Assembly (NCBI GenBank): GCA_963715985.1
Contig: CAVQSP010000011.1
Location: 256,001 to 320,000 of the forward strand
Reading direction: 5' to 3'
Source of the DNA: an uncultured Thermoleophilia bacterium
Lineage (GTDB): Bacteria; Actinomycetota; Thermoleophilia; UBA2241
Length of the DNA: 64,000 nt
Part shown: one piece after another, positions 32,888 to 62,739 of the stretch
Layout: the number at the start of each line of letters is the position of its first letter
Numbering within the stretch: the first letter of the stretch is position 1
Made by a program: the position numbers and the translations under genes
Notes under the pieces: generated by a model
Told to the model about the DNA's origin: nothing
Seen by the model: only the letters and a program-made list of their open reading frames with translations
The model's database searches: none

Positions 32888-33310
32888 CTACTCAGACGCC
32901 GCGACGATCGACGCGAGCAGCTCGTGCGGGTCGACCACAGGGACGGTGGCGTTTGCGAAGCCGGCACCGTCGCGGGTGACGATCGCCGCGGCCCCGGCAC
33001 TGCGCGCGGCTTCGTGGAGCACTGCGTCCTCGAAGTCCTCGAACTCGAGGTCGAGCGCCCGGTCGAGCACGTCCCGGTCGACGGGAGCGATCGCGAAGAG
33101 CGCCAGCACTCCGTGGACCTGCCTGTGAGCGCGGGTGCGCCCGAAACTCTTTGCCGCGATGCAGAAGATGGTCGTCACCGTCGTGGCGCAGATCATGCCG
33201 TCGACGCGCTCGTTGTCCACGAGCGCGAACAGCTTCGCGGCGACGCCGACATGAGGCGCTCTGTCCAGGAGTACGTCGAGGACGACGTTGGTGTCGAACA
33301 CCACCTTCAC
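32888..33310 (-). CDS. PIN-domain (VapC-like) toxin
   Basis: VFDTNVVLD, DFEDA, IVTRD. Confidence 0.9.
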   Translation of the reverse strand: MKVVFDTNVVLDVLLDRAPHVGVAAKLFALVDNERVDGMICATTVTTIFCIAAKSFGRTRAHRQVHGVLALFAIAPVDRDVLDRALDLEFEDFEDAVLHEAARSAGAAAIVTRDGAGFANATVPVVDPHELLASIVAASE

Positions 33311-33677: not shown

Positions 33678-34355
33678 TCAGGCGACGCCGGCCGCCGGGC
33701 AGATGCTCGCCAGCGGGCACTCGCCGCAGGCGGGCCGCCGCGCGTGGCAGATGCGGCGGCCGTGCCTCACGAAGTCCACGTGCACGGCGTAGATCTGCGG
33801 CGCGTCGCCGGCGCCCGCCAGCTCGGTGAGCAGCGGGTGCGCCTGCTCGGCGGTGACCTTGTCACCGATGACGCCCAGCCGCCGGGCCACCCGGTGCACG
33901 TGCGTGTCCACCGGCATCACCGGCCGCTCCAGCGAGAACAGCAGCACGCAGGCGGCCGTCTTGGGGCCCACGCCGGGGAGGCCCGTCAGGTACGCCTGGG
34001 CCTCCTCGTCGCTCATTTCATCCAGCACGTCCAGGTCGGGCGCCCCGGAGGGCGCACTGATGGCCTCGAGGATGCGCTTGATGCGCGGCGCCTTGGTGTG
34101 CGCGAGGCCGCCCAGAGCGATGGCCTCCTCGATCTGCTCCGCCGAGGCGTCGCGCGCCGCGACCCAGTCGGGGAAGCGCGCCTTGAGCGCGGCGAAGGTG
34201 CGCTCGGTGTTCACATCGGCGGTGTTCTGCGAGAGCACCGTGAAAACGAGCTCGTCCACCGGCGGGTACCTGGGCGAGAGCACCGGACGACCGTAGAAGT
34301 CGTCCAGGAGGGCGGTAGCCCGGGCGAGCTGTTCTCCGGGTGACGGCGCGTTCAC
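33678..34355 (-). CDS. Endonuclease III (HhH-GPD) family DNA glycosylase
   Basis: LSQNT, LPGVGPKTA, VDTHVHRV, C-x6-C-x2-C-x5-C; leaderless GTG after TGATAGGCT. Confidence 0.92.
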   Translation of the reverse strand: MNAPSPGEQLARATALLDDFYGRPVLSPRYPPVDELVFTVLSQNTADVNTERTFAALKARFPDWVAARDASAEQIEEAIALGGLAHTKAPRIKRILEAISAPSGAPDLDVLDEMSDEEAQAYLTGLPGVGPKTAACVLLFSLERPVMPVDTHVHRVARRLGVIGDKVTAEQAHPLLTELAGAGDAPQIYAVHVDFVRHGRRICHARRPACGECPLASICPAAGVA

Positions 34356-45377: not shown

Positions 45378-45634
45378 ACGCGGGACACTATCACGGACCG
45401 TGAGGGTCGGACGGCTCGCCGGGAGCGAGGCCCACGCACACCGGCGTCGCTCCGCGTCCAACGCGCAGGCCTGAGGAAGGACGTTGTGGATAGTATGTAC
45501 GCGCGACTTTGGCCCTTCTGGACAAGACCAGCCCACCCGAGAAGCAGACCGGCCTCACATGACCGCCTCCCGCGTGCGTCACTGGCCAACAGAATGCGCC
45601 CTGTCGTGACGAAATGGCGTGCTCGCGCGCCTAC

Positions 45635-45667
45635 GTGTGGACGCGTGCACAAGCGGGCCGCTATACT
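45635..45667 (+). promoter_or_regulatory. Rex-like operator overlapping the promoter of the hdrA-metVF operon
   Basis: GTGTGGA-CGCG-TGCACAA over TGGACG-N18-TATACT. Confidence 0.55.
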
Positions 45668-45744
45668 TGCGAGACCCAAGTCAGGGTTCTGACTGTGGTT
45701 GCCAACTTTTCTGTCGGACCTGCCGCGTGTGCAAAGGAGTGCGT

Positions 45745-50190: not shown

Positions 50191-50191
50191 G

Positions 50192-50773
50192 ATGGCCGAG
50201 GCTGAAGCCACCGCCGTCGAGACGCCCGTGGACGAGGTCCCCAGGAAGCCCGTGGACCCGGACTTCGAGCCCGAGATCATCGTGTTCGCGTGCCACTACT
50301 GCGCATACGCCGCGGCCGACCTGGCCGGCAGCATGCGCCTGCAATACCCGTCGAACATCCGCATGATCAAGCTGCCCTGCACGGGCAAGCTCGAGGTCAT
50401 CCACCTGCTCAAGGCCGTCGAGGCCGGCGCGGACGGCGTGTACGCCGCCGGCTGCCTCGAGGGTGAGTGCCACTACCTCAAGGGCAACCTGTGGGCGCGC
50501 AAGCGCATCACCCACGTGAAAGACCTGCTCAGCGAGCTCGGCATCGAGCCGGAGCGCGTGGAGATGTACAACATGTCGTCGGCCGAGGGCGCCAAGTTCG
50601 CGGCCGCGGCCACCGAGTTCACCGAGCGCATCAAGCAGCTCGGCCCCAGCCCCATCCGCCGTCACGGCGTGGACGCGCACGCCGCCGCGCGCGAAGCGCT
50701 CGGCGGCGTGGCCATGCCTGATGAACCCCATCCGTCTGCCGCGGCAACCGTCGAGGAAGGACACGCAGAATGA
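50192..50773 (+). CDS. mvhD: MvhD/FlpD [2Fe-2S] subunit
   Basis: FACHYCAYAAADLAG, PCTGK, GADGV...GC..GECHY..GN. Confidence 0.93.
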   Translation: MAEAEATAVETPVDEVPRKPVDPDFEPEIIVFACHYCAYAAADLAGSMRLQYPSNIRMIKLPCTGKLEVIHLLKAVEAGADGVYAAGCLEGECHYLKGNLWARKRITHVKDLLSELGIEPERVEMYNMSSAEGAKFAAAATEFTERIKQLGPSPIRRHGVDAHAAAREALGGVAMPDEPHPSAAATVEEGHAE

Positions 50774-51453
50774 TCACCGCCGAACGCAAACCCTTCGACG
50801 AGATCGTCGGACTCGTCGGCGACAAGAAGAAGGTCCTCGTCGCCGGCTGCGACACGTGCGTCGCGATCTGCCTCACGGGTGGCGAGAAGGAGGCCGAGAT
50901 CCTGGCCAGCGAGCTGCGCATCAAGGCTGAGCAGGACGGCCGCGACGTCGCCATCGAGCACACCGCCGCCATCCGCCAGTGCGAGTGGGAGTACCTCGAC
51001 ATGATCGCCGCCAAGGTGGACGAGGCCGACATCGTGCTCAGCATGGCCTGCGGCATCGGCATCCAGAGCATGGCCGAGAAGTTCGCGCCCAAGCTCATCG
51101 TGCCGGCCGTCAACACCAACATGCTGGGCATGCCGCAGGAGCACGCCGTATGGCTCGAGCGCTGCGGCGCCTGCGGCGACTGCGTCATCGGCGAGACCGC
51201 CGGCATCTGCCCGGTGGTGCGCTGCAGCAAGAGCCTCATGAACGGCCCGTGCGGCGGCTCGCACGACGGCAAGTGCGAGGTCACGACGCCGGAGAAAGAA
51301 GAGCTCGACTGCGCCTGGGCGCTCATCTGGGACCGCCTCAAGGCGCAGGGTCGCGAAGAGATGATGTACGTCAACCGGCCGCCGAAGAACTGGAGCAAGA
51401 GCAGCTCCGGCGGCCCACGGAAGATGGTGCGTGAGGAGGCGAAGCCGGTATGA
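50770..51453 (+). CDS. metV: Methylene-THF reductase small subunit MetV
   Basis: GCDTC..C.TGG, RQCE, ACGIG, CGACGDC, CPVVRCSKSLMNGPCGG, CAW. Confidence 0.92.
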   Translation: MITAERKPFDEIVGLVGDKKKVLVAGCDTCVAICLTGGEKEAEILASELRIKAEQDGRDVAIEHTAAIRQCEWEYLDMIAAKVDEADIVLSMACGIGIQSMAEKFAPKLIVPAVNTNMLGMPQEHAVWLERCGACGDCVIGETAGICPVVRCSKSLMNGPCGGSHDGKCEVTTPEKEELDCAWALIWDRLKAQGREEMMYVNRPPKNWSKSSSGGPRKMVREEAKPV

Positions 51454-52394
51454 CCGCCACCGAGTACAAGGCTGGCAGCAACCTCGAGAAGGTCCTGAGC
51501 GCGGGCAAGTTCGCGGTCACCGGCGAGTGCGGCCCGCCGAAGAGCGCCGACGTGAGCGTCATCGAGGAGAAGGCCAAGATCCTCAAGGGCTACGTGGACG
51601 CCGTCAACATCACCGACAACCAGACCGCCGTGGTGCGCGTGTGCTCCATGGCCTCCGGCTACACTGCCCAGCAGAACGGCCTCGAGGCCATCATGCAGAT
51701 GACCTGCCGCGACCGGAACCGCCTGGCGATGCAGGCCGACATCCTCGGCGCCTACACCCTGGGCATCAAGAACATCCTCTGCCTCACCGGCGACCACATG
51801 AGCTTCGGCAACCACACTGAGGCCAAGGGCGTCCACGACCTCGACTCGCTCAACCTCATCAAGATGTACAAGGACATGCGCGACGAGAAGAAGTTCCAGT
51901 GCGGCGAGGAGATGCCGGTGGCTCCCGAGCTCTACATCGGCTGCGCCGAGAACCCCTTCGCCGACCCCTTCGAGTTCCGCGCCCTGCGCCTGCAGAAGAA
52001 GATCCAGGCCGGCGCCGACTTCATCCAGACCCAGTGCATCTTCAACGTCCCCAAGTTCAAGAAGTGGATGGAAGAGGTCCGTGCTCTCGGTCTGCACAAG
52101 GAGATCAAGATCCTCGCCGGCATCACGCCGCTCAAGGGCGTCGGCGGCGCCCGCTACATGCAGAACTTCGTCCCCGGCATCGACGTGCCCCAGGAGATCG
52201 TCGACCGTATGGCCGCCTGCGAGAAGGGCGCCCCGTCGCAGGCCGAGGGCAAGAAGATCGCCGTCGAGATGATCAAGGAGTTCGCCGAGATCGAGGGCGT
52301 GGCCGGCGTGCACATCATGGCCATCGAGTGGGAGATCGCCGTGCCCGAGATCGTGGAGGCCGCCGGCCTCATGCCGCGGCCCGCGGTAGCGTAG
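51450..52394 (+). CDS. metF: Methylene-THF reductase MetF
   Basis: NITDN, TCRDRNR, LTGDH, KKIQAGADFIQTQ, GVHIM. Confidence 0.94.
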   Translation: MTATEYKAGSNLEKVLSAGKFAVTGECGPPKSADVSVIEEKAKILKGYVDAVNITDNQTAVVRVCSMASGYTAQQNGLEAIMQMTCRDRNRLAMQADILGAYTLGIKNILCLTGDHMSFGNHTEAKGVHDLDSLNLIKMYKDMRDEKKFQCGEEMPVAPELYIGCAENPFADPFEFRALRLQKKIQAGADFIQTQCIFNVPKFKKWMEEVRALGLHKEIKILAGITPLKGVGGARYMQNFVPGIDVPQEIVDRMAACEKGAPSQAEGKKIAVEMIKEFAEIEGVAGVHIMAIEWEIAVPEIVEAAGLMPRPAVA

Positions 52395-52404
52395 GAGGTC
52401 TGGA

Positions 52405-52986
52405 ATGACCACCTGCACAGTGAGCCCGCTCCTGGCCGAGAACATCGGCACAGGCTGCGGAGAGAACGCCTTCAAGTGCTACCAGTGCAAGCGCTGCACC
52501 AGCGGCTGCCCGGTGGCGCGCTACTCCGACATGCACCCGGCGATGATCATGCGCGCCGTGCAGCTCGGCCAGCTGGACATGGTGTTCGACGACCGTTTCA
52601 TCTGGCTGTGCACCGGCTGCGAGACCTGCACCACGCGCTGCCCGCAGGGCATCGACATCGCCGCCGTCATGGACGAGCTGAAGATCATCGCCCGGCGTGA
52701 CGGCCGCATCCCGGACGGCACGCCGTCCGCGCAGATGCTCAAACTGAACTACGACTCGTTCGTGCGCTGGGGTCGCATGTGGGAGGTCGAGCTGATCACC
52801 CGCGACGTGCTCAAGCGGCCGAGCAGCGCCAAGAACTGGTTCACGCTCGGCCCCAAGATGATGCTCAAGGGCAAGATCAACCCCACGCTCAAGCGCGGCG
52901 ACACGCTGGCCATGAAGCGCATGGTCCAGACCGCCGACAGCATCACCAAGGCGAAGATGCGGCGGCAGAAGGAGGGTCTGTCATGA
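52405..52986 (+). CDS. hdrC: HdrC 2x[4Fe-4S] subunit
   Basis: CYQCKRCTSGCP, IWLCTGCETCTTRCP. Confidence 0.92.
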   Translation: MTTCTVSPLLAENIGTGCGENAFKCYQCKRCTSGCPVARYSDMHPAMIMRAVQLGQLDMVFDDRFIWLCTGCETCTTRCPQGIDIAAVMDELKIIARRDGRIPDGTPSAQMLKLNYDSFVRWGRMWEVELITRDVLKRPSSAKNWFTLGPKMMLKGKINPTLKRGDTLAMKRMVQTADSITKAKMRRQKEGLS

Positions 52987-53849
52987 GCGCGACCCTCGCC
53001 TACTACCCCGGCTGCTCGCTGCACGGCACGTCCGGCGAGTTCGACGCCAGCTTCAAGGCCACGGCCAGGGCGCTGGGCCTCACCCTGCTCGAGATCCCCG
53101 GCTGGGAGTGCTGCGGCAACACGGCGGCGCACTCCATCAACCGCCTGCTCTCCACGGCCCTGCCGGTCAACGAGCTGGCCAAGGTGGAGCAGGACATGAA
53201 GCTCGACGCCGTGGCCGTGCCCTGCGCGGCCTGCTACAGCCGCTTCAAGACCGGCGCCCACGAGGTGGCCGAGGACGCGGAGACGGCGGCCGACGTGCGT
53301 GCCGTGGTCGGCCGCCCGTACAACGGCGGGGTCGAGGTCCACAACCTCATCGACGTCTACCACGACGCCGTGGGCCTCGACGCCCTGGAGTCCAGGGTCA
53401 CGCGCCCGTTCCGCGGCCTCAAGGTGGCCTGCTACTACGGCTGCCTGCTCACCAGGCCGCCCAAGGTCACCCTGGCCGACGACCCCGAGTACCCCATGCA
53501 CATGGACGAGGTCGTCAAGGCGCTGGGCTGCGAGCCGGTGCAGTGGAACTACAAGACCGACTGCTGCGGCGCCGCGCTGGCGCTCACCGAGCAGGGCATC
53601 GTCGACGACCTCGTCGGTCGCATCCTCAATGACGCGCGCGCCTGCGGCGCGGAAGCCGTTGCCGTGGCCTGCCCGCTCTGCCAGGTCAACCTCGACGGCC
53701 GCCAGGTCGAGATCACCAAGAAGCAGGGCGACTGGCGCAGCGTGCCGGTCATCTTCCTCAGCCAGCTGGTGGGCCGCGCGATCGGCATCGACGACAAGAC
53801 GCTGGGCTTGAGCAAGCACCTCGTCGACATCGCCGCCGTGATGGCGTAA
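52983..53849 (+). CDS. hdrB: HdrB (CCG domains)
   Basis: YYPGCSL, WECCG, CAACY, YYGC, CCGA, CPLCQVNLD. Confidence 0.93.
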   Translation: MSATLAYYPGCSLHGTSGEFDASFKATARALGLTLLEIPGWECCGNTAAHSINRLLSTALPVNELAKVEQDMKLDAVAVPCAACYSRFKTGAHEVAEDAETAADVRAVVGRPYNGGVEVHNLIDVYHDAVGLDALESRVTRPFRGLKVACYYGCLLTRPPKVTLADDPEYPMHMDEVVKALGCEPVQWNYKTDCCGAALALTEQGIVDDLVGRILNDARACGAEAVAVACPLCQVNLDGRQVEITKKQGDWRSVPVIFLSQLVGRAIGIDDKTLGLSKHLVDIAAVMA

Positions 53850-53910: not shown

Positions 53911-54009
53911 ACGTCTTTCTGGAGGCGCGACCGCCCGCCCCAGCCTCTCGGCAAGCTTGCCGCGACGCGGTAGAGTGCGGGAGTAAGAGTGCGCGAAGAG
54001 GGAGCTACC

Positions 54010-54645
54010 ATGACTGAGGTCGTGCAGCCGGGGGCCGGGGGCCGCGTGCTCCTGGTGTACGCGACGCGGCACGGGTCCACGCGGGAGGTCGCCGAGGCGG
54101 TCGCCGAGGAGCTGCGTGCGGCCGGCGCCGAGGTGGAGTTGTGCGAGGCCTCGTCGGCGCCGGCGCCCGGCGGCTACGACGCGGTCGTGGTCGGCGCCCC
54201 GATGATCATGGGCTGGCATCGCGACGCCGAGAAATACGTCAAACGGCATCGCCAGGCACTGGCTCAAGTGCCGACGGCCTTCTTCGTGATGGCAGCGTCG
54301 CTCACCGACACCGGCGAGGGCGACGTGCGTGGCGTGCCCATCGTCAAGGACCCGTGGCTCGCCAAGAAGCCGCGCGAGGCCGGCAAGCTGCGCCGCAAGG
54401 AGCGCTACGCGCTGCCGGCGCACTACCTGGGCGACATCCTCGATGCCTGCGCCCCGGCGTGGCCGCGCACGGTGGCCTTCTTCGCGGGATCGCTCGACCT
54501 CACGACCATGAACGTCCTGGAGAAGCTCTTCGTGCTCCTCGTCATCGGCGCCACGCCCGGCGACGGGCGCAACTTCAAGGCCGTGCGCGAGTGGGCCGCC
54601 GAGCTGCCGGAGCGGCTGCGCCCGCCGGCCCCTCCGTCCGCCTGA
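54010..54645 (+). CDS. Flavodoxin-domain protein (HemG-like)
   Basis: VYATRHGSTREVA, YDAVVVGAP, FFAG.LD, D.RNF..VREWA. Confidence 0.85.
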   Translation: MTEVVQPGAGGRVLLVYATRHGSTREVAEAVAEELRAAGAEVELCEASSAPAPGGYDAVVVGAPMIMGWHRDAEKYVKRHRQALAQVPTAFFVMAASLTDTGEGDVRGVPIVKDPWLAKKPREAGKLRRKERYALPAHYLGDILDACAPAWPRTVAFFAGSLDLTTMNVLEKLFVLLVIGATPGDGRNFKAVREWAAELPERLRPPAPPSA

Positions 54646-54804
54646 CCGCCACGCAGCACGGCGGACCACGGCTGCCACGGCGGCGCAGATACTGTCCAGC
54701 GTACCGCACTCGGCGCGCTGCCTGGCGGCACGCGGACGCGACGCCTCATATGATGCCCGCAGCGCTTCTGCACACTCACGCTACCGAGAGGAGAGGGTCG
54801 GTCG

Positions 54805-55464
54805 ATGAGCACCGTTGACGAACTCGTCAAGGCGGTCCAAGAGGGCAACGCCCCCCAGGCCGCCGACCTTGCCGCACGCGCGCTCGAGGAGGGCGCCGAC
54901 GCCGCCGGGCTGGTGGACTCGCTGTCCGCCGCCATGCGCGCCGTGGGCGACCGCTTCGGCACCGGCGAGATCTTTCTGCCGGAGCTGATGCTGGCGGCAC
55001 GCGCCATGCAGAAGGCCATGGACGTGCTGCAGCCCGCGCTGCTGGCGTCCGCCACCGCCAAGGGCAATCTGGGCGTCATCGTCCTCGGCACCGTGAAGGG
55101 CGACGTCCACGAGATCGGCAAGGACATCGCCATCACCATGCTTCGCGCCACCGGCTTCGAGGTGTACGACCTCGGCCGCGACGTGGACCCGCTGGACTTC
55201 GTCAAGCGCGCCGAGGAGCTGCACGCCGACATCATCGGCGCCTCCGCTCTGATGACCACCACCATGCCGGCTCAGCGGGAGCTCGTGGACATCCTCGTGG
55301 CCAAGGGCCTGCGCGACAAGTATCACGTGATCCTGGGAGGTGCCCCCGTGACGGCCGAGTGGGTGGCCGAGACGGGCGCCGACAGCTGGGGCGAGGACGC
55401 CGCCAAGGCGGCCAAAACGCTCGAGGAGTTCATGGCCGGCAAACGCGCGGGCGCGGGAGAGTGA
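54805..55464 (+). CDS. Methyltransferase cognate corrinoid protein (MtmC/MttC-like)
   Basis: VGDRF..GEIFLPEL, GTVKGDVHEIGK (DxHxxG), SALMTTT, GGAP. Confidence 0.93.
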   Translation: MSTVDELVKAVQEGNAPQAADLAARALEEGADAAGLVDSLSAAMRAVGDRFGTGEIFLPELMLAARAMQKAMDVLQPALLASATAKGNLGVIVLGTVKGDVHEIGKDIAITMLRATGFEVYDLGRDVDPLDFVKRAEELHADIIGASALMTTTMPAQRELVDILVAKGLRDKYHVILGGAPVTAEWVAETGADSWGEDAAKAAKTLEEFMAGKRAGAGE

Positions 55465-55468
55465 CGGC

Positions 55469-56848
55469 ATGTCGCACCTGAAGATGTGGGAGATCATGGA
55501 GCGGGCCGCCGAGGGCCCGTACTGCGAGGACGACGAGTTCCTCTACGACGTCTTCCTGCCGACGATGCAGGACGTGCTGCAGAAGTACGAGATCAAGTTC
55601 GACCCGGCCACGCCGGTGCCCGCCGACGACGACCTCGCCGACCGCGTGTGGAAGGCGGCAGTGGAGCTCTTCCTCAAGGTCGGCGTGCACAACGTGGACA
55701 CGCACCGCCGCATCCTCATCACCGAGGACGAGCTCAACGAGGCGCTCTTCCTGGCGCCGCAGGTGCACCAGGTCGGCGCCGGTCACGAGACGCGCTGGTG
55801 GATGCCGCGCAAGATCGAGGACCCGCGCGGCCCGTTCTGCATCTTCAGCCCGGACATCACGTACGACGAGGACATCTTCCTGCAGGCCTCCATGGCCTAC
55901 GTGCAGGAGCCGCTCGCCGACGGCGTCTGCGGCCCTATCCTCGAGGAGTCCATCGGCCGCACCATCCACTCGGGCACGCCCACCGAGATGGCCGGCGTCA
56001 TGGAGCACGCCATGCTCCTGCGCAACGCCGCCAAGCTCGTCGGCCGCCCGGGCCTCTTCCTCGTGGCTGTGGGCACGGCGCAGTCGGACGTCGGCCAGGT
56101 GGCCGTGAGCAACAACGAGTGGGGCGTGCGCAGCAGCGACGGGCGTCTCATCGGCGTGCTCACCGAGATGAAGACCGACAACGAGCTGCTCAACAAGGTG
56201 GCGCACTGCAAGCAGTTCGGCTGCGCCATCGGCTGCCTCACCGGCGCGATCTACGGCGGCTACGCCGGCGGCGCCGAGGGCACGGCGGTGCTCGAGGTGG
56301 CACACCACCTCGTGGGCCTCACCGTGTACCAGCACAACTTCAACAACAGCTTCCCGTTCCACATGCAGCACACGTCCAACAGCGGCCGCGAGATGCTGTG
56401 GCTGGTGAGCATGGTGCACCAGGCGCTGGCCCGCAACAGCCGCATCCTCAGCACGAGCAACGGCTTCTTCAACGCCGGCCCCGGCACGGAGATGATCTTC
56501 CGCGAGGCCGCCGCGCACGCCATCGCCAGCGTGGTGAGCGGCGGCGACCTGTGGACGGCGGCGCCGCGCCACAACAAATACCGCAACTACGCCACGCCGC
56601 TGGAGGCGCGCCTCGCCTGCGAGGCCGGCCACGCCGTGGCGCTGCAGGGCATGACCCGCGAAAAGGCCTGTGAGGTCGTCGACACGCTCCTCAAGAAGTA
56701 CGAGGGCGAGATCGCCACGGCCCCCGAGGGCAAGCCCTTCCAGGAGTGCTACGAGGTCATGAAGGTCAAGCCGCAGGGCTGGTACCTGGACATGTACAAG
56801 GCCGCCAGGGAGGAGCTCGCGGGACTGGGCGTCGAGTTCCCGTATTGA
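55469..56848 (+). CDS. mtmB: MtmB-family corrinoid methyltransferase without pyrrolysine
   Basis: P.DDDLADR, GRPG, E.K.D, GGYAGG.EG, AGPGTEM, EAR, P.GK.FQECY; no in-frame TAG. Confidence 0.88.
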   Translation: MSHLKMWEIMERAAEGPYCEDDEFLYDVFLPTMQDVLQKYEIKFDPATPVPADDDLADRVWKAAVELFLKVGVHNVDTHRRILITEDELNEALFLAPQVHQVGAGHETRWWMPRKIEDPRGPFCIFSPDITYDEDIFLQASMAYVQEPLADGVCGPILEESIGRTIHSGTPTEMAGVMEHAMLLRNAAKLVGRPGLFLVAVGTAQSDVGQVAVSNNEWGVRSSDGRLIGVLTEMKTDNELLNKVAHCKQFGCAIGCLTGAIYGGYAGGAEGTAVLEVAHHLVGLTVYQHNFNNSFPFHMQHTSNSGREMLWLVSMVHQALARNSRILSTSNGFFNAGPGTEMIFREAAAHAIASVVSGGDLWTAAPRHNKYRNYATPLEARLACEAGHAVALQGMTREKACEVVDTLLKKYEGEIATAPEGKPFQECYEVMKVKPQGWYLDMYKAAREELAGLGVEFPY

Positions 56849-56883: not shown

Positions 56884-57144
56884 ACGCGAGAGGGGCGCCC
56901 GGTCGGCGCCCCTCTCGCGTGCCGGGCGACGAGTCCCAAAGCCGAAGGCTTGTCGCCTCCAAACGCATGATCGCGAAGGCGATTTCAAGCAAGAGCACGT
57001 TCGGACGTGCGTCTGCTTGAAACCGCCGATCGGATGGTCGGGGCCGGCGGCGCGAGGCAGCGGCGGGCCGGTGGCGCGAGGCAGCGGCGGGCCGGCGGCA
57101 CCTGCAGGTCGCAAGAGGGGCGCCCCATGGGCGCCCCTCTTGCG
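56884..57144. repeat. Structured intergenic block: two related palindromes flanking a long hairpin and a 24-bp tandem repeat
   Basis: Palindromes at 56884-56920 and 57110-57144; hairpin at 56983-57022; GGGCCGGYGGCGCGAGGCAGCGGC x2.5 at 57041-57100. Confidence 0.75.
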
Positions 57145-57216
57145 TCTCGTCATCAGCCGGCCTTCACGGCCCGGCCGGGCTTCCCGGCTGCGCGCCGTCA
57201 CGCGGCGCGAGTGGCG

Positions 57217-57465
57217 TCAGCTCCCGTCTTCCTGCTCGGCCAGCACTTCCGCGTAGACGCGGTCCAGGCCTCGCTCCAGGATCTTGCGGCGCCACACCAC
57301 AGCTCAGCGGCAGACCTGCCCGTCGCTGTGGTTGGGGAAGCACACCTCCCGTTCGGCCGGCGTCATCGCCGCGACACGGGCCGCGAACGCGGCGCCGTCC
57401 TCCGGCGCCTCCTGCAGACCGGCCGGCCGATCGGCGCCGCCCTCACCATGTCGTGCGTCCTGCAT
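57217..57465 (-). CDS. Putative novel small selenoprotein with a CxU motif, 82 aa
   Basis: AGGAG-N9-ATG; ..EVCFPNHSDGQVCR[TGA 57304-57306]AVVWRRKILERGLDRVYAEVLAEQEDGS*; codon usage stays coding-like after the TGA. Confidence 0.62.
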
Positions 57466-57485
57466 GCGTCACGTCTCCTGATCGC

Positions 57486-57914
57486 TCACGGGAGCGGGTC
57501 CTGGTCCCACTCCGACGGTGTGTAGGCGCACCCCGGCTCGCCGCCCACGGCGAGGAGCGCGGTGCCGGGCGCTGTGGCCACCGCGCCGCGCCGGCTCTTG
57601 GGGTCGCGCACGTAGACGAAGGTCCCGGCCGGGGCGTCGAACTCCTCGCCGTCCACCTTGAAGCGGGCGCTGCCCGTCACCACGAGGTAGAGCTCCTCGT
57701 GGCGCGTGCCCGACTCGGGGTCCTCGGTGTGGTCCTCGGTGAGCACGTCACCGGCCTTGGGAGCGCGGAAGAGGTTGGTGCCGAACGAGCCGATGCCGAA
57801 GAAGCGGCGCAGCGGCTTCCACTCCGTCTCCGGGGCCCACTCGTACGGGATCGTGGGGATGTCGTCGATGCTCGCGGCCGTGTACTTCGCCGCGCCCTGC
57901 CGCTCGTCGCTCAT
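57486..57914 (-). CDS. Cupin-domain protein
   Basis: H.E....HEELYLVVTG.A.F.VDGE; GAGGAGG RBS. Confidence 0.85.
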   Translation of the reverse strand: MSDERQGAAKYTAASIDDIPTIPYEWAPETEWKPLRRFFGIGSFGTNLFRAPKAGDVLTEDHTEDPESGTRHEELYLVVTGSARFKVDGEEFDAPAGTFVYVRDPKSRRGAVATAPGTALLAVGGEPGCAYTPSEWDQDPLP

Positions 57915-57965: not shown

Positions 57966-58703
57966 TCAATCGGCAGCCGGCATGCACCCGCAGCCGCAGG
58001 CCTCGCAGCCCACAGGGTTCGGCGCGGTCTCGGGCGCCGGCTCCGTGTCGCCGAGCTCCCAGAAGATCTCCTCGCCCAGCACCTGCCCGGGCTCCACGAC
58101 GATGAACTCGTCGTCGTGCGGCCCGCGGATGAGCTTCTCGAGCAGCCGCAGCGAGCCGTCGAGCTGGATGACGGGCAGGCTGTAGAACTCCGAGACGGTC
58201 TCCACGTACTCGTGCGCCTTGTCGAGGTCGTAGGTGCCGGTGTCGATGACGGCCACGCGCGTGTACGACTCCATGATCATGTGCGCGACCATGCGGGCCT
58301 TCTCCTCACCCATGCGCGGGATCATCTTGAGGTACTCGCGGTACGGGTCCTCGAGCTCCTCGATCCAGCCGCGGGTGTAGTAGTACGTGCCGGGGTGCTC
58401 GCCAAACTCACGCAGGTAGGCGCGCCGGGAGCCCAGGAGGATGGCGATGCAGTCGTCGCAGGCGGGCAGGATCAACCGGTGCGAGCCCGCCACCAGCTCA
58501 GCCGTACCGTTGGAGCAGCGGCCGTAGCCGAGCAGGATGGTGCAGTCGTCCGGGGTGGCGGCGATCGCCTCGTTGATCTTCGCGCGGAGCACGTCCGGAG
58601 TGTCGTGCAGGAAGCCCTCGAGGTACTCCACCGGGATGTCCCCGCGGAGCGCCTCGACCTCGTCGCGGATGGTGCTGCAGGCGATGATCTTGTAGTCGGC
58701 CAT
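57966..58703 (-). CDS. DUF1638 family protein with Cys-rich tail
   Basis: IIAC, LHDTP, LGYGRCSNG, DDCIAILLGS, GTYYYTRGW; tail CEACGCGC; promoter CTGACA-N17-TACAAT. Confidence 0.85.
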   Translation of the reverse strand: MADYKIIACSTIRDEVEALRGDIPVEYLEGFLHDTPDVLRAKINEAIAATPDDCTILLGYGRCSNGTAELVAGSHRLILPACDDCIAILLGSRRAYLREFGEHPGTYYYTRGWIEELEDPYREYLKMIPRMGEEKARMVAHMIMESYTRVAVIDTGTYDLDKAHEYVETVSEFYSLPVIQLDGSLRLLEKLIRGPHDDEFIVVEPGQVLGEEIFWELGDTEPAPETAPNPVGCEACGCGCMPAAD

Positions 58704-58869
58704 GGGAAGTGATGCCTTTCGGTCGGGCACAGGTCACTGAGGCCCATTGTAGGCTTCCGCGCGGGGAATGTCAGGTCGTTTCCGTCCTGATTAGGCGGCG
58801 TTGCGGCTACGCCGACCGGCCGGCGGGGTCGGGCCCAGCCGGCGCATCAAGCCCCGCGCCGTACGTAGC

Positions 58870-58957: not shown

Positions 58958-60508
58958 TTACTTGGTCACCTGGAAGGAGTCGGTATCCATGGCGGACTGC
59001 GCGTTGCCGGCGGCGTCCGTCGCGAAGACCTTCACCTTGTACTTGCCCGGCGACAGCTTGCAGGTGAACGAGATGCTGTACTTCTGGTTGGAGGTCTTGG
59101 TGCCGCCGTTGACGCTCTTCTTCACGGCGCCGTTCGAGTTGTAGATCTTGATCGAGATACTGCTGCACTGCGGCGTGATGCTGTTGCAGATGTAGCTGAT
59201 CTTGCAGGTCTTGCCCTTCTTCACACTGGAGGGTGCGAAGGCCTCGGTCTGCGGACCGGTGGTGCAGATGTTGACGGTCGCCTGGGCCGTCTGGCTCTGC
59301 GCGCCGGTGTTGTCGAGCGCGTAGACCTGGACCGAGTTCACGCCGTTCGTGATGCCGCCCTGCGGGCCCGGCACGGTGATGGTGGTGCCGCTCAGCGTCG
59401 TGAAGGGCATGCTGCCGATCAGGTACATGACCTTCTGGATGCCGCTCTGGCTGTCGCTGGCATTGACCGTCAACGTGACCGGCTGGTTGTGCCACAGGTC
59501 GTCCGCGCCGCTGATGGTGACGACCGGGATCGTGGTCTCAGCGTTCACCGTGAACGGCAGCGACGCCGTTGGCGTGCCGGACGCGCCGTTACGCACCGCG
59601 AAGTTCAGGGTCCCCGCGTTGGCGATGTCGGCGGCGGTGAGTTGGCAGGTCATCTGCGTGGCGCTCACGTAGGTCGCGGCGTGCACGGCGCCATTCACGA
59701 GCACCTGCGTGTTGCCGCTCTGGAAGTTGGTGCCGCTGAGCGTCACGGACGGCGGACTGATGAGCTTGGCCCAGGTCTGCGCCGGGTTCAGCCCGATCAG
59801 TGTAGGGACCGGGGCGGTGACGACGAACGGTACCGGGTTGGAGGTCAGCGCGCCGGCCATGACCGTGAGCTGCGCGGCGCCCGGGTTGGCGATGAGCGCG
59901 GCGGGCACGATGGCCGTGCACGTTGCGGTCGGGTTGGGGAGCCCGCCGGGCGAGGTGACGAGCGCAGTCGAGTTCCAGTAGACGGTGGGAGAGGTGCCGA
60001 AGTTGGCGCCGTTCACCGTCAACGTGAAGGCCGCCCCGCCCGCGACGGCGGTCTGGGGCCGGACCGACGCGATGGTCGGACTCGTGGCAGGAGGCGTACC
60101 CGTGATGGTGAACGCGCCGGCGCGGAAGATCTCGTCGGGGACGATCTGACCGAAGCCGGTGTAGTAATCGACGACGACGTCGTAGGTACCGGCGCTCTCG
60201 AGGTAGGTGTTGATGCTACAGGCGATGTAGTCGCCGCCCAACATGGTCACGACGTAGGGATTGGAGGCGTGGACGACGTCATAGGGCCAGACCGTCTGCT
60301 GCAGCGTCACCTGGTCTATGTCCAGGATCTGCGAGAAGTTCTGGCCGAAGATCTTGAGCTGATACGTGTTGTAGTTGGTGTTCGACCCCGAGGTCGGGTC
60401 CACGCCCGTAATGTACGGGGCCGCGGCGAAGGCGCTCGCGGCATACACGAAGCTCAAGACGAGCACCACCGTAAGGACCAACATGACACCCAGACTGCGT
60501 TTCTTCAT
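58958..60508 (-). CDS. Secreted IPT/TIG and Ig-like repeat surface protein
   Basis: Signal peptide ending AFA; repeated P.I.S..P..L..G.NF units; C-terminal G.YKVKVFATDAAGN. Confidence 0.82.
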   Translation of the reverse strand: MKKRSLGVMLVLTVVLVLSFVYAASAFAAAPYITGVDPTSGSNTNYNTYQLKIFGQNFSQILDIDQVTLQQTVWPYDVVHASNPYVVTMLGGDYIACSINTYLESAGTYDVVVDYYTGFGQIVPDEIFRAGAFTITGTPPATSPTIASVRPQTAVAGGAAFTLTVNGANFGTSPTVYWNSTALVTSPGGLPNPTATCTAIVPAALIANPGAAQLTVMAGALTSNPVPFVVTAPVPTLIGLNPAQTWAKLISPPSVTLSGTNFQSGNTQVLVNGAVHAATYVSATQMTCQLTAADIANAGTLNFAVRNGASGTPTASLPFTVNAETTIPVVTISGADDLWHNQPVTLTVNASDSQSGIQKVMYLIGSMPFTTLSGTTITVPGPQGGITNGVNSVQVYALDNTGAQSQTAQATVNICTTGPQTEAFAPSSVKKGKTCKISYICNSITPQCSSISIKIYNSNGAVKKSVNGGTKTSNQKYSISFTCKLSPGKYKVKVFATDAAGNAQSAMDTDSFQVTK

Positions 60509-60807
60509 TGTCACCCTCCTCTTTGCTTACCAAGACGTCGTGCGCAGAACCGAAAAAAGTGCGTAGCTGGTGCTCCTCTCCCCCACACTACAGGCATGTT
60601 CGACCCCGACCACTTCTTACCTACTATCGGCATCCTTCTCCGGGTCTGAAGTTCTGACGCACGTCGGAGAGCCACGGACCGACTGCCGTTTCGCTGGGCT
60701 TACCCGTCTTGCGCGGCGTGTATGCAGATCTGGCAACAGGGGCGGACCGGGAACCTCGCGCTGCGCAAGGAACCGGCGAACGGCCGACTCGCAGAGCGGC
60801 CCACAAA

Positions 60808-60895: not shown

Positions 60896-62470
60896 TCACC
60901 TGGTCACCTTGAAGGAATCCCCATCCATCGAGGTCTGGTCGTTGCCCGCGGCGTCGGCGGCGTAGACCCTGTACCTGTAGTTCCCCGGCGCCAGCTTGCA
61001 CGTGAAGGACTTGTTTCCCCGGGTGTTCGAAGGCCGCTGGCCGACGTTGATCGTCTTGGCGAGCGAGCCGTTCGACTTGAAGATCTTGAGCTTGATGGTG
61101 CAGGTCGGGGTGATGCTGTCGGCGCGGTAGCCGAGCTTCAGCGTCTTGCCCTTCTTGACTCTGCTCGGCGCGAACGCCTGGGTCTCGGGACCCACCGTGC
61201 AGATGTTCACGGTCACCGTCTTGGGCGGCGACTCGACGTTGTTGCAGTCGTCCGTCGAGAACACCGAGACGACCTGGGCGCCGTCGCCGCTGCCGCCGGC
61301 CGGCGCCGGGACGGTGATGGTGGTGCCCGAAAGCGTGAGCCATGCGGGCGTCACGCCGGAAGAGCCGATGCCGTACTGCGTCATCTGCACGCCGGCGCCG
61401 CCGGGGTCACTGGCGCTGACCGTGAGGACGACCGGCGCGTTGTGCCAGGCGGTGTCGGCGCCCGAGATGGTCGTGACCGGCGCCGTGGCATCGGCGCTCA
61501 GGGTGAGCGACTGGGTCGCAGAGATGCCGCCGCCCGGCTCGGGGTTCTGCACCGCGAAGCTGATCGTGCCCGGGGTGGCGATGTCGGCCGCGGTCAGCGC
61601 CAGGCTGAGCTGGGTGGGGCCGACAAGCGTCGCCGACCGGGCCGCACCGTTCATGAGGACCTTCGACCCACTCACGAAGTTCGTGCCGGTCAGCAGGACC
61701 GTGTACGGCTGGTAGTACTTCGCCCAGCCCGTGGTCGGACTGATGCTCGTCAAGGTCGGGGCGGGAGTCACGACGTCGATGGTGATGATGTTGGACTGCC
61801 CTCCCCCGGGAGCCGGGTTGACGACCTTGATGCTCGCCGTTGTCGGCGTGGCGATCAAGGCGGCGGGCACCGCAGCTCTGAGCGAGGTCGTGGGGTTGGG
61901 CAGCATGCCGGTGGTCGTGAGAGCAGTCGAGTTCCAGTAGACGACGGCCGGGAAGAGCCCGCCGGCAGCGAAGTTCGCCCCTGCGACGATGAGGTCGAAC
62001 CCGGCTCCGCCGACGACGACCTTGGACGGGGTCAGCGAGTTGATGGTGGGCCCCATCAGGCCGGGCTGGGACACGGTGAAGACGCCGTACAGCGTGCTCT
62101 TGTCCGGAATGACCTGGCCCAGCCCCGTGTAGTACTCGATGACCACGTTGTACGTCCCGGCATGCTGACCATAGGTGTTGAGCGTGCACGTGATGGTGGG
62201 CGGAAGCAGGGAGTTGACCTGCTCAGCGCTCGCGTAGATCACGTCGAACGGCGGACCGTTCTGCTCCAGGCGCACGTTGAGGCCGCCGGTGATCTCGCTG
62301 AAGTTGGAGCCCAGGATGTACAGCGTGAAGTCCGCCGCGTTCGTGTTGAGGCGGGTGTTCGGGTTCACGCTCGTGAACGTCGGGGCCGCCAGCGCGGTGG
62401 TGGCGAGCCCGAGGCCCAGAATCACGACAAGGATCACCCCTGCCAGGAACCCCACGGTTCGTCTGTTCAT
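60896..62470 (-). CDS. Secreted IPT/TIG and Ig-like repeat surface protein, tandem paralog
   Basis: Collinear with 58958-60508 (YYTG.GQ.IPD, VYWNSTAL, TVNICT.GP.T.AFAPS, SMD.DSF.VT). Confidence 0.82.
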   Translation of the reverse strand: MNRRTVGFLAGVILVVILGLGLATTALAAPTFTSVNPNTRLNTNAADFTLYILGSNFSEITGGLNVRLEQNGPPFDVIYASAEQVNSLLPPTITCTLNTYGQHAGTYNVVIEYYTGLGQVIPDKSTLYGVFTVSQPGLMGPTINSLTPSKVVVGGAGFDLIVAGANFAAGGLFPAVVYWNSTALTTTGMLPNPTTSLRAAVPAALIATPTTASIKVVNPAPGGGQSNIITIDVVTPAPTLTSISPTTGWAKYYQPYTVLLTGTNFVSGSKVLMNGAARSATLVGPTQLSLALTAADIATPGTISFAVQNPEPGGGISATQSLTLSADATAPVTTISGADTAWHNAPVVLTVSASDPGGAGVQMTQYGIGSSGVTPAWLTLSGTTITVPAPAGGSGDGAQVVSVFSTDDCNNVESPPKTVTVNICTVGPETQAFAPSRVKKGKTLKLGYRADSITPTCTIKLKIFKSNGSLAKTINVGQRPSNTRGNKSFTCKLAPGNYRYRVYAADAAGNDQTSMDGDSFKVTR

Positions 62471-62739
62471 CGCCCTCCTCCTCCTCTTGCCGATACGGTC
62501 CTTCGCCACCCTCGTGGATCGCGCCGGACGCACGCCTCTGGCGCACGCCACACGCCCTCGTCGGACAAGAGCCCGGCAGAGCTGACGGTGTCGCGCCCGG
62601 GTCTTCGGCCCCGGCGCGGGTGGCATGGCTCCCCTTCTTCTCGGCTTTACCCTTCTGGCACGGGCTTTACGCCGATAGGACGGGGGTAATCGTGGGCAGG
62701 ACCGCGGCGGAGCGGCGATGGAGGCCCGACATCGGGTGA

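Follow-up and report, generated by a model that had tools for sequence, protein, structure and literature searches.

Gene organisation at the locus

The window, a 64,000-nucleotide stretch of the genome of an uncultured Thermoleophilia bacterium, contains two convergent operons whose ends carry the following features.

53974..56848, plus strand: end of the convergent operon, made up of the next three genes
53974..54642, plus strand: flavodoxin_5 gene
54805..55464, plus strand: corrinoid protein gene
55469..56848, plus strand: MtmB-family methyltransferase gene of the non-pyrrolysine type (PF05369, E = 2.7e-92, profile positions 2–449 of 450)
57106..57153, no strand assigned: perfect G+C-rich palindromic hairpin between the two operons
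57217..57465, minus strand: small putative selenoprotein gene, 82 codons (M1 to S82, including U54) plus a TGA stop
57304..57306, minus strand: in-frame TGA at codon 54, read here as selenocysteine (U54); the aligned codon in relatives is TGA or TGT
57475..57479, minus strand: Shine-Dalgarno sequence AGGAG, 9-nt spacer to the ATG at 57465
57486..57914, minus strand: cupin-like gene, 142 aa (weak Cupin_2 match, E = 2e-4, below the Pfam cut-off)
57966..58730, minus strand: DUF1638 gene, whose likely true start gives 245 aa (PF07796, E = 3.7e-41, 141 bits against a cut-off of 27)

DUF1638 is the first gene of the minus-strand operon, the cupin the second and the small gene the last cistron. The palindromic hairpin is probably a bidirectional terminator. 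The MtmB-family reading frame is uninterrupted and hence has no in-frame TAG. Beyond the convergent operon lie genes for an HdrA-like protein, MvhD/FlpD, a MetV-like protein, MetF/MTHFR, an Fe-S dicluster protein and a CCG-domain protein.

The cupin stop codon (57488..57486) is separated by 20 nt from the small gene, which opens with the ATG at 57465, reaches a TGA at codon 54 (57306..57304) and continues for 28 sense codons to a second TGA, its stop, at 57219..57217. This arrangement had been described in the initial annotation, and each of its elements (the minus-strand frame, AGGAG-N9-ATG, the 20-nt gap, the TGA, the 28 codons and the stop) was confirmed, with a translation identical letter for letter. 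GGAG-type sites are also present 6–10 nt 5′ of the ATG in orthologues. The GC contents at codon positions 1, 2 and 3 are 0.83, 0.57 and 0.85 before the TGA, and 0.82, 0.39 and 0.86 after it, so that the frame is coding-like on either side. The third-position GC content of the small reading frame (0.85) is below that of the neighbouring genes (0.92–0.97), which counts against the selenoprotein reading developed below, and at 72% GC an open frame of 28 codons means nothing by itself.

Conservation across the in-frame TGA

The gene was found in 12 of 89 genomes of the taxonomic family, all of them in a single genus (12 of its 54 genomes). Every carrier has exactly one in-frame TGA, in the same alignment column, with the protein conserved on both sides, and the invariant residues of a 13-sequence alignment flank that column in both directions. 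Two sister genera (G233 and G216) have TGT, encoding cysteine, in this column, and their reading frames stop at TAG and TAA. Among 23 matches to a profile searched against 1.84 billion cluster representatives, 18 have cysteine in the TGA column, in full-length proteins of 65–111 aa with the motif VCRC; seven metagenome loci likewise have cysteine (C-x-C) at this position. Four further profile matches, together with eight of nine word-search matches, are gene calls of only 43–60 aa, and the four were found on inspection to end exactly at the TGA. Gene calls cut short at the TGA are what databases usually show for a missed selenoprotein. That 12 genomes conserve both the TGA column and its two flanks, and that cysteine homologues exist as well, is more than chance.

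Close pairs of sequences differ, over the 19 codons past the TGA, by 4–6.5 synonymous as against 0–3.5 non-synonymous changes (dN/dS 0–0.15); the region downstream of the TGA is under purifying selection. Contigs from four runs of four independent studies cover positions 57304–57306, and all of them keep the TGA without variants. The profile matches exclude P0029, a repeat protein of 250 aa, and matches in G059 and G087 and a second match in G011 were dropped after translation as low-complexity and off-frame. In G053 (locus L038) the copy has neither the N-terminal part nor a neighbouring cupin gene and seems to be degenerate. In a sample of 401 genomes of the class, real matches were confined to the window's own family, and in a sample of 401 genomes of the phylum the window's genome was the sole match. 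So far the gene is known from a single family of genomes labelled Thermoleophilia and from related metagenome contigs.

The conserved core spans approximately residues 44–70 and reads P-x-HSDG-x-V-C-x-U-A-V-x-W-R-R-x-x-L-x-R-G-L. Across 28 sequences the only invariant residues are G49, V51, C52, U/C54, A55, R59 and G66. The motif initially proposed, C-x9-C-x-U with a histidine, is therefore retained in part: the C52/U54 pair belongs to the family as a whole, but the first cysteine (C42) and the histidine do not.

If the TGA were an ordinary stop codon, the locus would encode only a 53-residue N-terminal peptide, and the conservation downstream would reflect an RNA or a second, tiny reading frame. 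Public gene callers do terminate the protein at the TGA, a canonical SECIS was not found, and nucleotide conservation in the locus peaks in a non-coding stretch (the hairpin H2, described below). The cysteine homologues, however, run continuously across the site, with their most conserved residues on both sides of it, and the downstream substitutions show an in-frame synonymous bias. The N-terminal 40 residues, variable and poorly predicted, would alone make almost no conserved protein. Nor does any conserved start codon follow the TGA (orthologues vary between GUG and GUC), and for this reason a split into two genes at the TGA was also ruled out. We consider an ordinary stop highly improbable. 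The hidden 82-residue gene very likely encodes a genuine selenocysteine protein, whose undescribed family is associated with genes for vitamin-B12-type methyl transfer.

Selenocysteine machinery and the search for a local recoding signal

The genome encodes selD, selA and selB in one cluster, as well as tRNA-Sec, and selD itself contains a selenocysteine TGA. FdhA-type and redoxin-type selenoproteins with canonical SECIS hairpins are also present. Of the genus's 54 genomes, 46 have SelA above the cut-off, among them 10 of the 12 carriers of the TGA form; in two TGA-form genomes, G011 (66% complete) and G021 (90% complete), neither SelA nor SelB was found. A search for GrdA and GrdB gave no match, and its control likewise matched nowhere.

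The initial annotation had proposed a selenoprotein, and had named as refuting observations homologues ending at the TGA without downstream conservation, a genome lacking selenocysteine machinery, and reads with TGC or TGG. None of these was met: the downstream region is conserved and under purifying selection, the machinery is complete, and the contigs of the four runs show TGA. The cysteine-containing orthologues that it had called for exist and align at the TGA column. The proposal is thus supported.

The RNA elements discussed from here on lie on the minus strand.

57290..57295, minus strand: 5′ strand of helix H1, GUGGCG, at +11 to +16 after the U of the selenocysteine codon, within codons W58-R59
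57211..57216, minus strand: 3′ strand of H1, CGCCAC, which begins at the first base past the stop codon and is exactly the reverse complement of 57295..57290
57191..57209, minus strand: hairpin H2 in the 3′ UTR, with a 7-bp G+C stem and a pentaloop CGUGA (57202..57198), 1 nt past H1
57259..57300, minus strand: best local hairpin past the selenocysteine codon, +6 to +48, -15.6 kcal/mol, 11-nt loop

Hairpins past the selenocysteine codon were scanned with our own implementation of the bSECIS consensus model from PMC13188914, in which the loop has 3–9 nt with a G in its first two positions, the upper stem at least 4 bp, the spacing is 16–37 nt and the energy is -7.5 kcal/mol or lower. No hairpin past the selenocysteine codon satisfied the model in the window, or in three of the four closest orthologues, and it was passed by six of 12 selenocysteine forms and one of two cysteine forms. 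The native FdhA, SelD and redoxin genes all passed (3/3), indicating that the scan works. A subset of accepted selenoprotein genes also fails the model, according to the part of PMC13188914 that was available. The stem CCU-GGAGCG-AGG, previously suggested as the SECIS, exists within the best local hairpin, but it has only 3 bp, is not conserved and is no better than shuffled sequence. Folding of the 52 nt after the UGA was also no better than that of dinucleotide shuffles (z = 0.12); folding-energy z-scores were all near 0, for this region as for H2, and have no power in RNA of 72% G+C. In an Rfam search no family came near threshold, and weak matches were confined to the terminator-like hairpin. 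Recoding in the window's clade does not rely on a textbook SECIS directly 3′ of the UGA.

A possible bipartite SECIS

H2 is present in nine of the 12 selenocysteine loci and in none of the nine cysteine loci. This raises the possibility, which we hold only tentatively, that SelB binds the 3′-UTR hairpin H2 in both the window's clade and the sister clade, with H1 docking H2 near the selenocysteine codon. H1 would pair bases +11 to +18, in the codons for W58-R59, with the stop codon plus the next six bases, a pairing that is itself uncertain. Such an arrangement would refine the recoding step of the preferred explanation without replacing that explanation.

Several observations favour it. H2 is nearly invariant in the nine loci, although the proteins are only about 41% identical, and the three selenocysteine loci without H2 have instead a strong local hairpin of 7–8 bp from +14. 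The H2 loop has G-U at positions 2–3, like all three native SECIS loops (GGUCU, CGUGC and AGUU), a feature missing from the hairpins directly past the selenocysteine codon. Counted through the junction, the loop lies 16–20 nt from that codon, the ordinary SECIS spacing of this genome, and H1 begins at +11 or +13 where native SECIS stems begin at +14. In a nine-sequence alignment 91.1% of H1 and H2 cells are paired, as against 21–65% when the partners are slid, and the observed pairing was reached by 23 of 500 shuffles. Two pairs have changed on both sides in G056, U-A to C-G and G-C to U-A, accompanied by replacement of Trp58 by Leu. The register of H1 is shifted by 2 nt in the sister clade and takes in the G-A of the stop codon; R59 is CGU in all four members of that clade, although CGU makes up 6.3% of the genome's arginine codons. 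The stop codon is TGA in 12 of 12 selenocysteine forms, compared with a genome background of 77%.

These observations are limited, however. Both compensatory changes are those of G056 alone, the sequences are related, and 23 of 500 is a weak shuffle control. When the post-UGA region was tested more broadly for pairing with the 3′ tail, the real tail did no better than shuffled ones (3 to 54 of 60 at least equalled the observed value), many alternative pairings are possible in G+C-rich RNA, and the folding energy of H2 is not better than that of shuffles (z = -0.41). H2 could instead be an mRNA-stabilising or protein-binding hairpin unrelated to selenocysteine. We know of no natural bacterial SECIS that acts via a long-range helix, and the accessible part of PMC13188914 places bacterial SECIS elements immediately 3′ of the UGA. 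It is thus no more than possible that in two of three clades the SelB-binding hairpin has moved from the coding region into the 3′ UTR, some 100 nt from the selenocysteine codon, with the 6-bp H1 holding the canonical distance.

Other readings of this region were rejected. A first RNAalifold fold paired post-UGA bases with the strands of H2 itself; it destroyed H2 and had no pair changed on both sides in the helix so formed, and H1 with H2 fits better. The stop TGA at 57219..57217 is not supported as a second selenocysteine codon: the frame beyond it lacks GC3 bias and runs for 9 to 301 codons to the next stop (locus L033 ends before any stop), conservation does not extend past the hairpin, and the H2 loop lies 14 nt from this TGA, below the bSECIS minimum of 16. 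H2 is also not a genome-wide repeat, since its 15-mer has only two further copies in the genome, both in unrelated, apparently coding contexts.

Canonical bacterial SECIS elements of the E. coli fdhF type are represented in this genome by its own FdhA, SelD and redoxin genes, and one clade of the small gene, with its strong hairpin from +14, resembles FdhA. In the window, by contrast, a consensus-type loop is found only in a 3′-UTR hairpin 101 nt downstream, which the long-range helix may bring close. A putative recoding hairpin after the stop codon recalls the 3′-UTR SECIS of archaea and eukaryotes, but the loop here is of the bacterial type rather than a GAA_A or kink-turn motif, and proximity would be achieved by RNA-RNA pairing, not by a bridging protein. 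In bacterial selenoproteins with selenocysteine near the C-terminus the SECIS falls after the stop codon. The small gene differs from such families, of which PMC13188914 names the ‘UXX-star’ type, in that its selenocysteine lies 28 codons before the stop.

If the bipartite arrangement is real, it is an architecture undescribed for bacteria, and gene finders that look only beside the UGA will miss such selenoprotein genes; a clamp of this kind would change the definition of the bacterial SECIS and the way selenoproteomes are searched. The locus is a natural experiment, in which selenocysteine occurs with a local hairpin or with a 3′-UTR hairpin and clamp helix, and cysteine with neither.

Family identity and predicted structure

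The read-through protein, with cysteine in place of selenocysteine, matched no NCBIfam family (E ≤ 1) and no Pfam family (E ≤ 0.01), and PDB sequence and Foldseek searches gave no match. ESM Atlas gave no usable match, and the HMMs of known CxU families (NF041203, NF041198, NF041072 and PF13192) did not match the small protein. That its family was unrecognised, as first annotated, therefore holds against Pfam, NCBIfam and PDB. Literature searches found no paper linking DUF1638 with a selenoprotein and no papers on DUF1847, and papers on selenoproteins and Thermoleophilia were irrelevant by title or abstract. On sequence comparison alone, the selenoprotein family appears to be previously uncatalogued; this rests on the HMM libraries and on those table passages of PMC13188914 that were available, and the candidate lists of a groundwater-MAG selenoproteome study cited there, and those of further surveys, may hold it. 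It would add to the HMM libraries and to the available table passages of this 2026 catalogue a family absent from both.

The AlphaFold2 model has a mean pLDDT of 73 and places helices at residues 53–65 and 67–81, with block-mean pLDDT of 85–94 over residues 51–80. The N-terminal half is poorly predicted and also poorly conserved across the family. The model puts C52 in a loop and has U54 capping the N-terminus of a conserved amphipathic helix; a predicted helix N-cap position of this kind is the usual setting of a reactive thiol or selenol. A thioredoxin-like beta-alpha-beta fold was not seen, as the model has helices and no strands at a moderate pLDDT of 73, and Foldseek gave no match.

The gene resembles the bacterial selenoproteins known from Sec/Cys pairs (119 families or subfamilies in the part of PMC13188914 available) in having an in-frame UGA, conserved flanks and cysteine homologues. 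Like them it has selenocysteine near cysteine in a short redox-type motif, truncated database calls and a host with selABCD. The CxU families in the available part of the same table (rhodanese-like form 3, UshA-like, ferredoxin-thioredoxin reductase and Trx-like Sec.1) have different, larger folds, whereas the small protein has a conserved core of approximately 30 residues on a helical hairpin.

Gene neighbourhood and possible function

The association with DUF1638 is recurrent. Identity of the cupin among orthologous loci is 78–87%; in 12 of 14 loci the cupin gene immediately precedes the small gene, and no locus that reaches far enough lacks DUF1638. Cysteine forms lie directly after DUF1638 (L057 and L058) or directly before it (L056), and four others (L052, L053, L054 and L060) have a corrinoid-protein gene 1–3 kb away; some adjoin DUF1847/DUF427 and not DUF1638. 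The genome has about five DUF1638 loci, only one of which carries the small gene, and two RamA-like genes. DUF1638 is reported to be required for methionine synthesis by split MetH and to co-occur with a RamA-like activase, and its predicted contribution has been given as enabling cobalamin to be reductively recharged; genetics in other bacteria ties it to the upkeep of active corrinoid cofactors. These statements come from the portions of the literature available to us.

Taken as a whole, the explanation that we consider probable is an unannotated selenoprotein gene, decoded by the host's own SelA, SelB, SelD and tRNA-Sec, whose product is accessory to the corrinoid system; its function is inferred, and there are no expression, selenium-labelling or proteomic data. 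The UGA at 57306..57304 would be read as selenocysteine by this machinery, giving C-x-U where relatives without selenocysteine have C-x-C. The small protein would be a redox (selenenylsulfide/selenol) or metal-ligating accessory subunit, and together with DUF1638 may keep the corrinoid protein of this methyltransferase system in its active Co(I) form or restore it to that form; neither role has been shown. The connection to DUF1638 and corrinoid methyl transfer suggested in the initial annotation stands on the recurrent gene neighbourhood and the DUF1638 literature only, with no direct evidence, and the role of the small protein is inferred from neighbourhood alone. A complex prediction for DUF1638 with the cysteine-form core scored 0.02 (mark 0.32), which counts neither for nor against an interaction.

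Ferredoxin-thioredoxin reductase has C-x-C motifs that both ligate a cluster and act in redox. The C-x-U or C-x-C of the small protein might be a metal ligand and not a redox couple, completing an Fe-S or other metal site on DUF1638 or the cupin, or coordinating the corrinoid cobalt. DUF1638 offers three invariant cysteines (C9, C63 and C85) together with invariant H33, H75, D34, D83 and D84 over 38 sequences, and the cupin is a typical metal-binding fold. In the available part of PMC13188914, ferredoxin-thioredoxin reductase is among the tabulated CxU selenoproteins and the corrinoid protein HgcA is listed as a CU selenoprotein (see also bioRxiv 10.1101/2022.07.06.499078, likewise available in part). 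The histidine and aspartate of HSDG are replaced in one selenocysteine clade, however, so that the small protein supplies only two conserved ligands, and most DUF1638 proteins, including those of the four other loci in this genome, lack such a partner. A purely metal-ligating role seems unlikely.

HgcA, the corrinoid protein of mercury methylation, resembles the small protein in placing selenocysteine within corrinoid-dependent methyl-transfer chemistry. In HgcA, however, the selenocysteine is in the corrinoid protein itself, in a CU dipeptide, whereas here it is in a separate small protein with C-x-U, and no sequence relation between the two was found. For DUF1638 itself, a PDB sequence search gave only a chance-level match, and its model gave only generic Rossmann-like matches by Foldseek and VIA-align (Z ≤ 6.7). 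Relative to corrinoid reactivation by DUF1638 and RamA-type activases, the new element is a small gene co-operonic with or adjacent to DUF1638, in selenocysteine and cysteine forms. The DUF1638 literature available to us in part comprises genetics and prediction only, and mentions no small Cys/Sec partner. DUF1638 thus gains a small, reactive Cys/Sec partner to test, and since it is genetically needed for B12-dependent methyl transfer while its biochemistry is unknown, this makes corrinoid reactivation experimentally more tractable. The hosts of the family are poorly studied high-G+C Actinomycetota from wetlands and soils.

The small gene and its TGA-form orthologues

The last cistron of the DUF1638-cupin-selenoprotein operon has an open frame interrupted by one in-frame TGA:

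57488..57486, minus strand: stop of the cupin gene, 20 bases 5′ of the small-gene ATG
57465, minus strand: start ATG of the small gene, with AGGAG upstream across a 9-nt spacer
57306..57304, minus strand: in-frame TGA, codon 54
57219..57217, minus strand: stop TGA, 28 codons past the internal TGA

Our translation was identical to that of the initial annotation. The frame resembles coding sequence both ahead of the internal TGA and past it, judged by GC at the three codon positions (0.83/0.57/0.85 before and 0.82/0.39/0.86 after), with third-position GC below that of neighbouring genes (0.92–0.97). At 72% G+C an open frame proves nothing by itself, and the selenoprotein case therefore depends on comparison. 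The accuracy of the sequence at the TGA, which the initial annotation had wanted checked, was upheld: 57304–57306 was invariant in contigs of four runs from four studies, the sole variant positions within 57100–57560 being 57248, 57331, 57351, 57404 and 57468.

A six-frame search with the read-through protein gave significant matches in 7 of 41 related genomes (the window's own counted), each covering both flanks of one single in-frame TGA. Profile searches found the TGA form in 12 of the 54 genomes that make up the genus, and in the same 12 and no others among the 89 genomes of the family. Matches in G059 (genus) and G087 (class level) and a second match in G011 were dropped, their translations being low-complexity and off-frame. 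The core HSDG-x-V-C-x-U-A-V-x-W-R-R-x-x-L-x-R-G-L is common to all 12 orthologues, with HSDG replaced by R-S/N-x-N-G in one clade. An ATG or GTG start with a Shine-Dalgarno site was present in all but G056 and G053, whose N-termini are unclear. Between close pairs, the 19 codons past the TGA showed 4–6.5 synonymous and 0–3.5 non-synonymous differences (dN/dS 0–0.15), indicating that this region is translated and under selection. Homologues conserved on both flanks, for which the initial annotation had proposed a search, occur in 12 TGA-form genomes. We consider it very likely that the TGA is decoded as selenocysteine and that this is a real selenoprotein gene; the whole statement, including a general role, is likely, with somewhat less assurance.

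One copy of the gene, at locus L038 (G053, contig C12, approximately 33688–33795), retains the TGA and the C-terminal half, along with a mismatched form of H2, a 3′-UTR hairpin described below. It is without the N-terminal part, the start and ribosome-binding site and a cupin neighbour, and has the look of a copy that is decaying or was displaced.

Cysteine homologues and the protein family

The initial annotation had also proposed a search for Cys-containing orthologues, and these exist. In G233 and G216, from two other genera of the same family, TGT stands at the TGA column and the proteins are continuous, ending at TAG or TAA stops. Searched with a profile, 1.84 billion representatives contained 23 matches: 18 full-length C-x-C proteins of 65–111 residues with V-C-R-C-A-V at the site, four calls of 43–60 residues whose last residue is exactly the one before the TGA, and a repeat protein, which was disregarded. 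A word-based search returned eight truncated calls (48–53 residues) and one Cys form. Cys forms were present at seven metagenome loci and two genome loci. Residues G49, V51, C52, U/C54, A55, R59 and G66 are invariant over 28 aligned sequences. The family is narrow among the genomes searched, with real matches only in the window's family in a class sample of 401 genomes, and only in the window's genome in a phylum sample of 401. In their records the relatives are given as Thermoleophilia or uncultured Actinomycetes.

With Cys at the Sec position, the small protein had no match in Pfam (E ≤ 0.01) or NCBIfam (E ≤ 1); a Cys-form profile matched no PDB sequence, Foldseek with the small-protein model gave no match, and the ESM Atlas held nothing usable for it. 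This agrees with the initial annotation, which had not recognised the family. In the part of a 2026 review of prokaryotic selenoproteomes available to us (PMC13188914), 119 selenoprotein families are tabulated. The CxU families in that table (rhodanese-like form 3, UshA-like, ferredoxin-thioredoxin reductase and Trx-like Sec.1) all have HMM identifiers from the libraries in which the small protein had no match. Within the limits of the HMM libraries and this table, which leave out the supplementary candidate lists of MAG surveys, the family is uncatalogued. A literature search found no paper joining DUF1638 with a selenoprotein. The small protein is a new family inside a well-known kind of system.

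An AlphaFold2 model built with the 28-row alignment had a mean pLDDT of 73. The first ~20 residues were poorly predicted (block means 42 and 51), and predicted helices 24–33 and 36–42 lie within a segment without family-wide conservation. A loop at 43–52 holds HSDG and C52, and helices follow at 53–65 and 67–81, with block-mean pLDDT of 85–94 over residues 51–80. The model thus places U54 at a helix N-cap, two residues past C52. Reactive thiols and selenols that can form a selenenylsulfide are usually placed in this way. The predicted arrangement would fit a reactive selenol of this kind, an inference from a model of moderate confidence.

Selenocysteine machinery

The Sec machinery whose absence, according to the initial annotation, would have refuted its proposal is present in the window's genome, as a tRNA-Sec and one gene cluster:

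contig C13, 101879–106959: selD, selA and selB

SelD is itself a selenoprotein with a classic Sec-TGA (K-S-G-U-A-A-K), and the genome has an FdhA-type gene with a canonical U-H-x-P site and a redoxin-type gene with a U-P-F-C site. SelA scored above the cut-off in 46 of the 54 genus genomes, 10 of the 12 TGA-form genomes and both Cys-form genomes. G011 (66% complete) and G021 (90% complete) have the TGA form, yet neither a SelA nor a SelB match was found in them; this may reflect an absent contig or real loss. SelA matches in adjacent pieces, seen in several genomes of the genus (G064, C4:295548–296649; also G024, G014 and G065), are frameshifts or assembly errors.

The redoxin/peroxiredoxin-type gene (N-R-T-F-R-U-P-F-C), on contig C5 with its TGA at 33105 on the minus strand, came from a scan for in-frame TGA codons. 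Its SECIS hairpin is canonical, with an 8-bp stem, the loop AGUU and a spacing of 25, and it is probably a selenoprotein gene of that type, with no family search behind the assignment.

Recoding signal

The recoding signal is the weak point of the selenoprotein case, and the SECIS question its most interesting part. The bacterial SECIS model, as far as the available part of the review gives it (PMC13188914), calls for a loop of 3–9 nt with G in the first two loop positions, an upper stem of at least 4 bp, a spacing of 16–37 nt and an energy of −7.5 kcal/mol or below. All three native selenoprotein genes of the window's genome passed, and positions 2–3 of their loops (GGUCU, CGUGC and AGUU) are G-U in every case. 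For the small gene in the window no hairpin passed the model as implemented, which was satisfied by 6 of 12 Sec forms and one of two Cys forms. The stem put forward initially as a SECIS (CCU-GGAGCG-AGG) has only 3 bp where at least 4 are needed, and is not supported. The best local hairpin past the Sec codon in the window (+6..+48, −15.6 kcal/mol, 11-nt loop) folded no better than shuffles. In the clade of G021, G064 and G063 a strong 7–8 bp hairpin begins at +14, where the stem of the FdhA SECIS also starts; unlike the native loops, those of this hairpin are without G-U.

Two other clades, accounting for 9 of the 12 Sec loci and including the window, have a nearly invariant element after the stop, made up of the stop TGA, CGCC, a short variable stretch and a 7-bp G+C stem with the loop CGUGA (CGUGU in one). 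This hairpin, H2, lies at 57209..57191 in the window. The proteins of the two clades are only ~41% identical. The element was found at none of nine Cys loci and not in the clade with the strong local hairpin. A genome search ruled out a genomic repeat, and a coding frame past the stop was rejected.

In the window, the six bases 3′ of the stop (57216..57211) and those at +11..+16 past the Sec codon (57295..57290, codons W58–R59) are exact reverse complements of each other, forming a potential long-range helix, H1. In G056 two base changes turn Trp58 into Leu, and the two bases opposite them, 3′ of the stop, have changed as well, each to the exact complement. The sister clade has H1 shifted by 2 nt and taking in G-A of the stop codon; R59 is encoded in all four members by the rare CGU, its U pairing with the stop-codon A. 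For H1 and H2 together, 91.1% of cells were paired over nine sequences, against 21–65% for slid partners, and two pairs were changed on both sides, a result reached by 23 of 500 shuffles. Counted through the junction, the H2 loop lies 16–20 nt from the Sec codon, compared with 16–25 nt in native elements.

Because of this pairing and compensation, and the native-like distance of the H2 loop, we tentatively propose a bipartite SECIS, in which H1 would clamp H2, as a SelB-binding hairpin of the 3′-UTR, at the canonical distance from the Sec codon. The proposal is possible but doubtful: a single genome supplies both compensatory changes, a wider test of pairing with shuffled tails as control fell short of significance, many alternative pairings are possible in G+C-rich RNA, and H2 may instead serve mRNA stability or bind something else.

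A second 3′-UTR hairpin was seen by eye, in the window only, at 57156–57175 (minus strand; GUGAA loop, ~7-bp G+C stem with one bulge).

Gene neighbourhood and possible role

The surroundings of the operon include the following features:

45610–53849, plus strand: HdrA-like 1526-aa flavoprotein/Fe-S protein, MvhD/FlpD, MetV-like (DUF5981), MetF (MTHFR), 4Fe-4S dicluster and CCG-domain proteins
55469–56848, plus strand: MtmB-family methyltransferase, full-length Pfam match, no internal stop
57106–57153: palindromic hairpin, perfect over 12 bp and rich in G+C, separating the convergent operons
58958–60514 and 60896–62626, minus strand: genes of two large proteins (IPT/TIG and bacterial Ig-like domains), located 5′ of the DUF1638 operon

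The convergent operon carries genes for flavodoxin_5, a corrinoid protein and the MtmB-family methyltransferase; the last, lacking an internal stop, is a non-pyrrolysine member. Directly upstream of these genes is the row from HdrA-like to CCG-domain, which we take to resemble the Hdr-MvhD-MetVF methylene-THF reductase complex of acetogens. The IPT/TIG–Ig-like proteins have no obvious relation to the DUF1638 operon.

In 12 of 14 loci the gene immediately 5′ of the small gene encodes the cupin. Among Cys forms, L057 and L058 directly follow DUF1638, with a convergent flavodoxin_5, and L056 directly precedes it; L053, L054 and L060 are flanked by DUF427 and DUF1847 genes on the other strand, and a corrinoid-protein gene lies 1–3 kb off. 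No paper found in a literature search mentions DUF1847. In Phaeobacter inhibens, according to the part of the published study available to us, methionine synthesis by a split B12-dependent synthase requires a DUF1638 gene, and DUF1638 distribution mirrors that of a RamA-like activase; in that part its authors give no mechanism. The best reading is an accessory role beside DUF1638, inferred from neighbourhood alone: the small protein would be a redox or metal-ligating accessory that keeps the corrinoid protein active. A confident DUF1638 model (pLDDT 90.8) had no structural neighbours beyond generic Rossmann-like ones. Three Cys of DUF1638 are invariant, as are His and Asp residues, and a shared metal site therefore stays possible.

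The window's genome has about five DUF1638 loci, and the small gene stands at only one, with no detectable copy at the others. At two of these loci (C11:10641–11136 and C17:73595–74030) the DUF1638 match falls in two adjacent pieces, and they may be frameshifted. The sole Rfam matches, weak ones to unrelated sRNA and miRNA models, came from the hairpin at 57106–57153, which is probably a bidirectional terminator.
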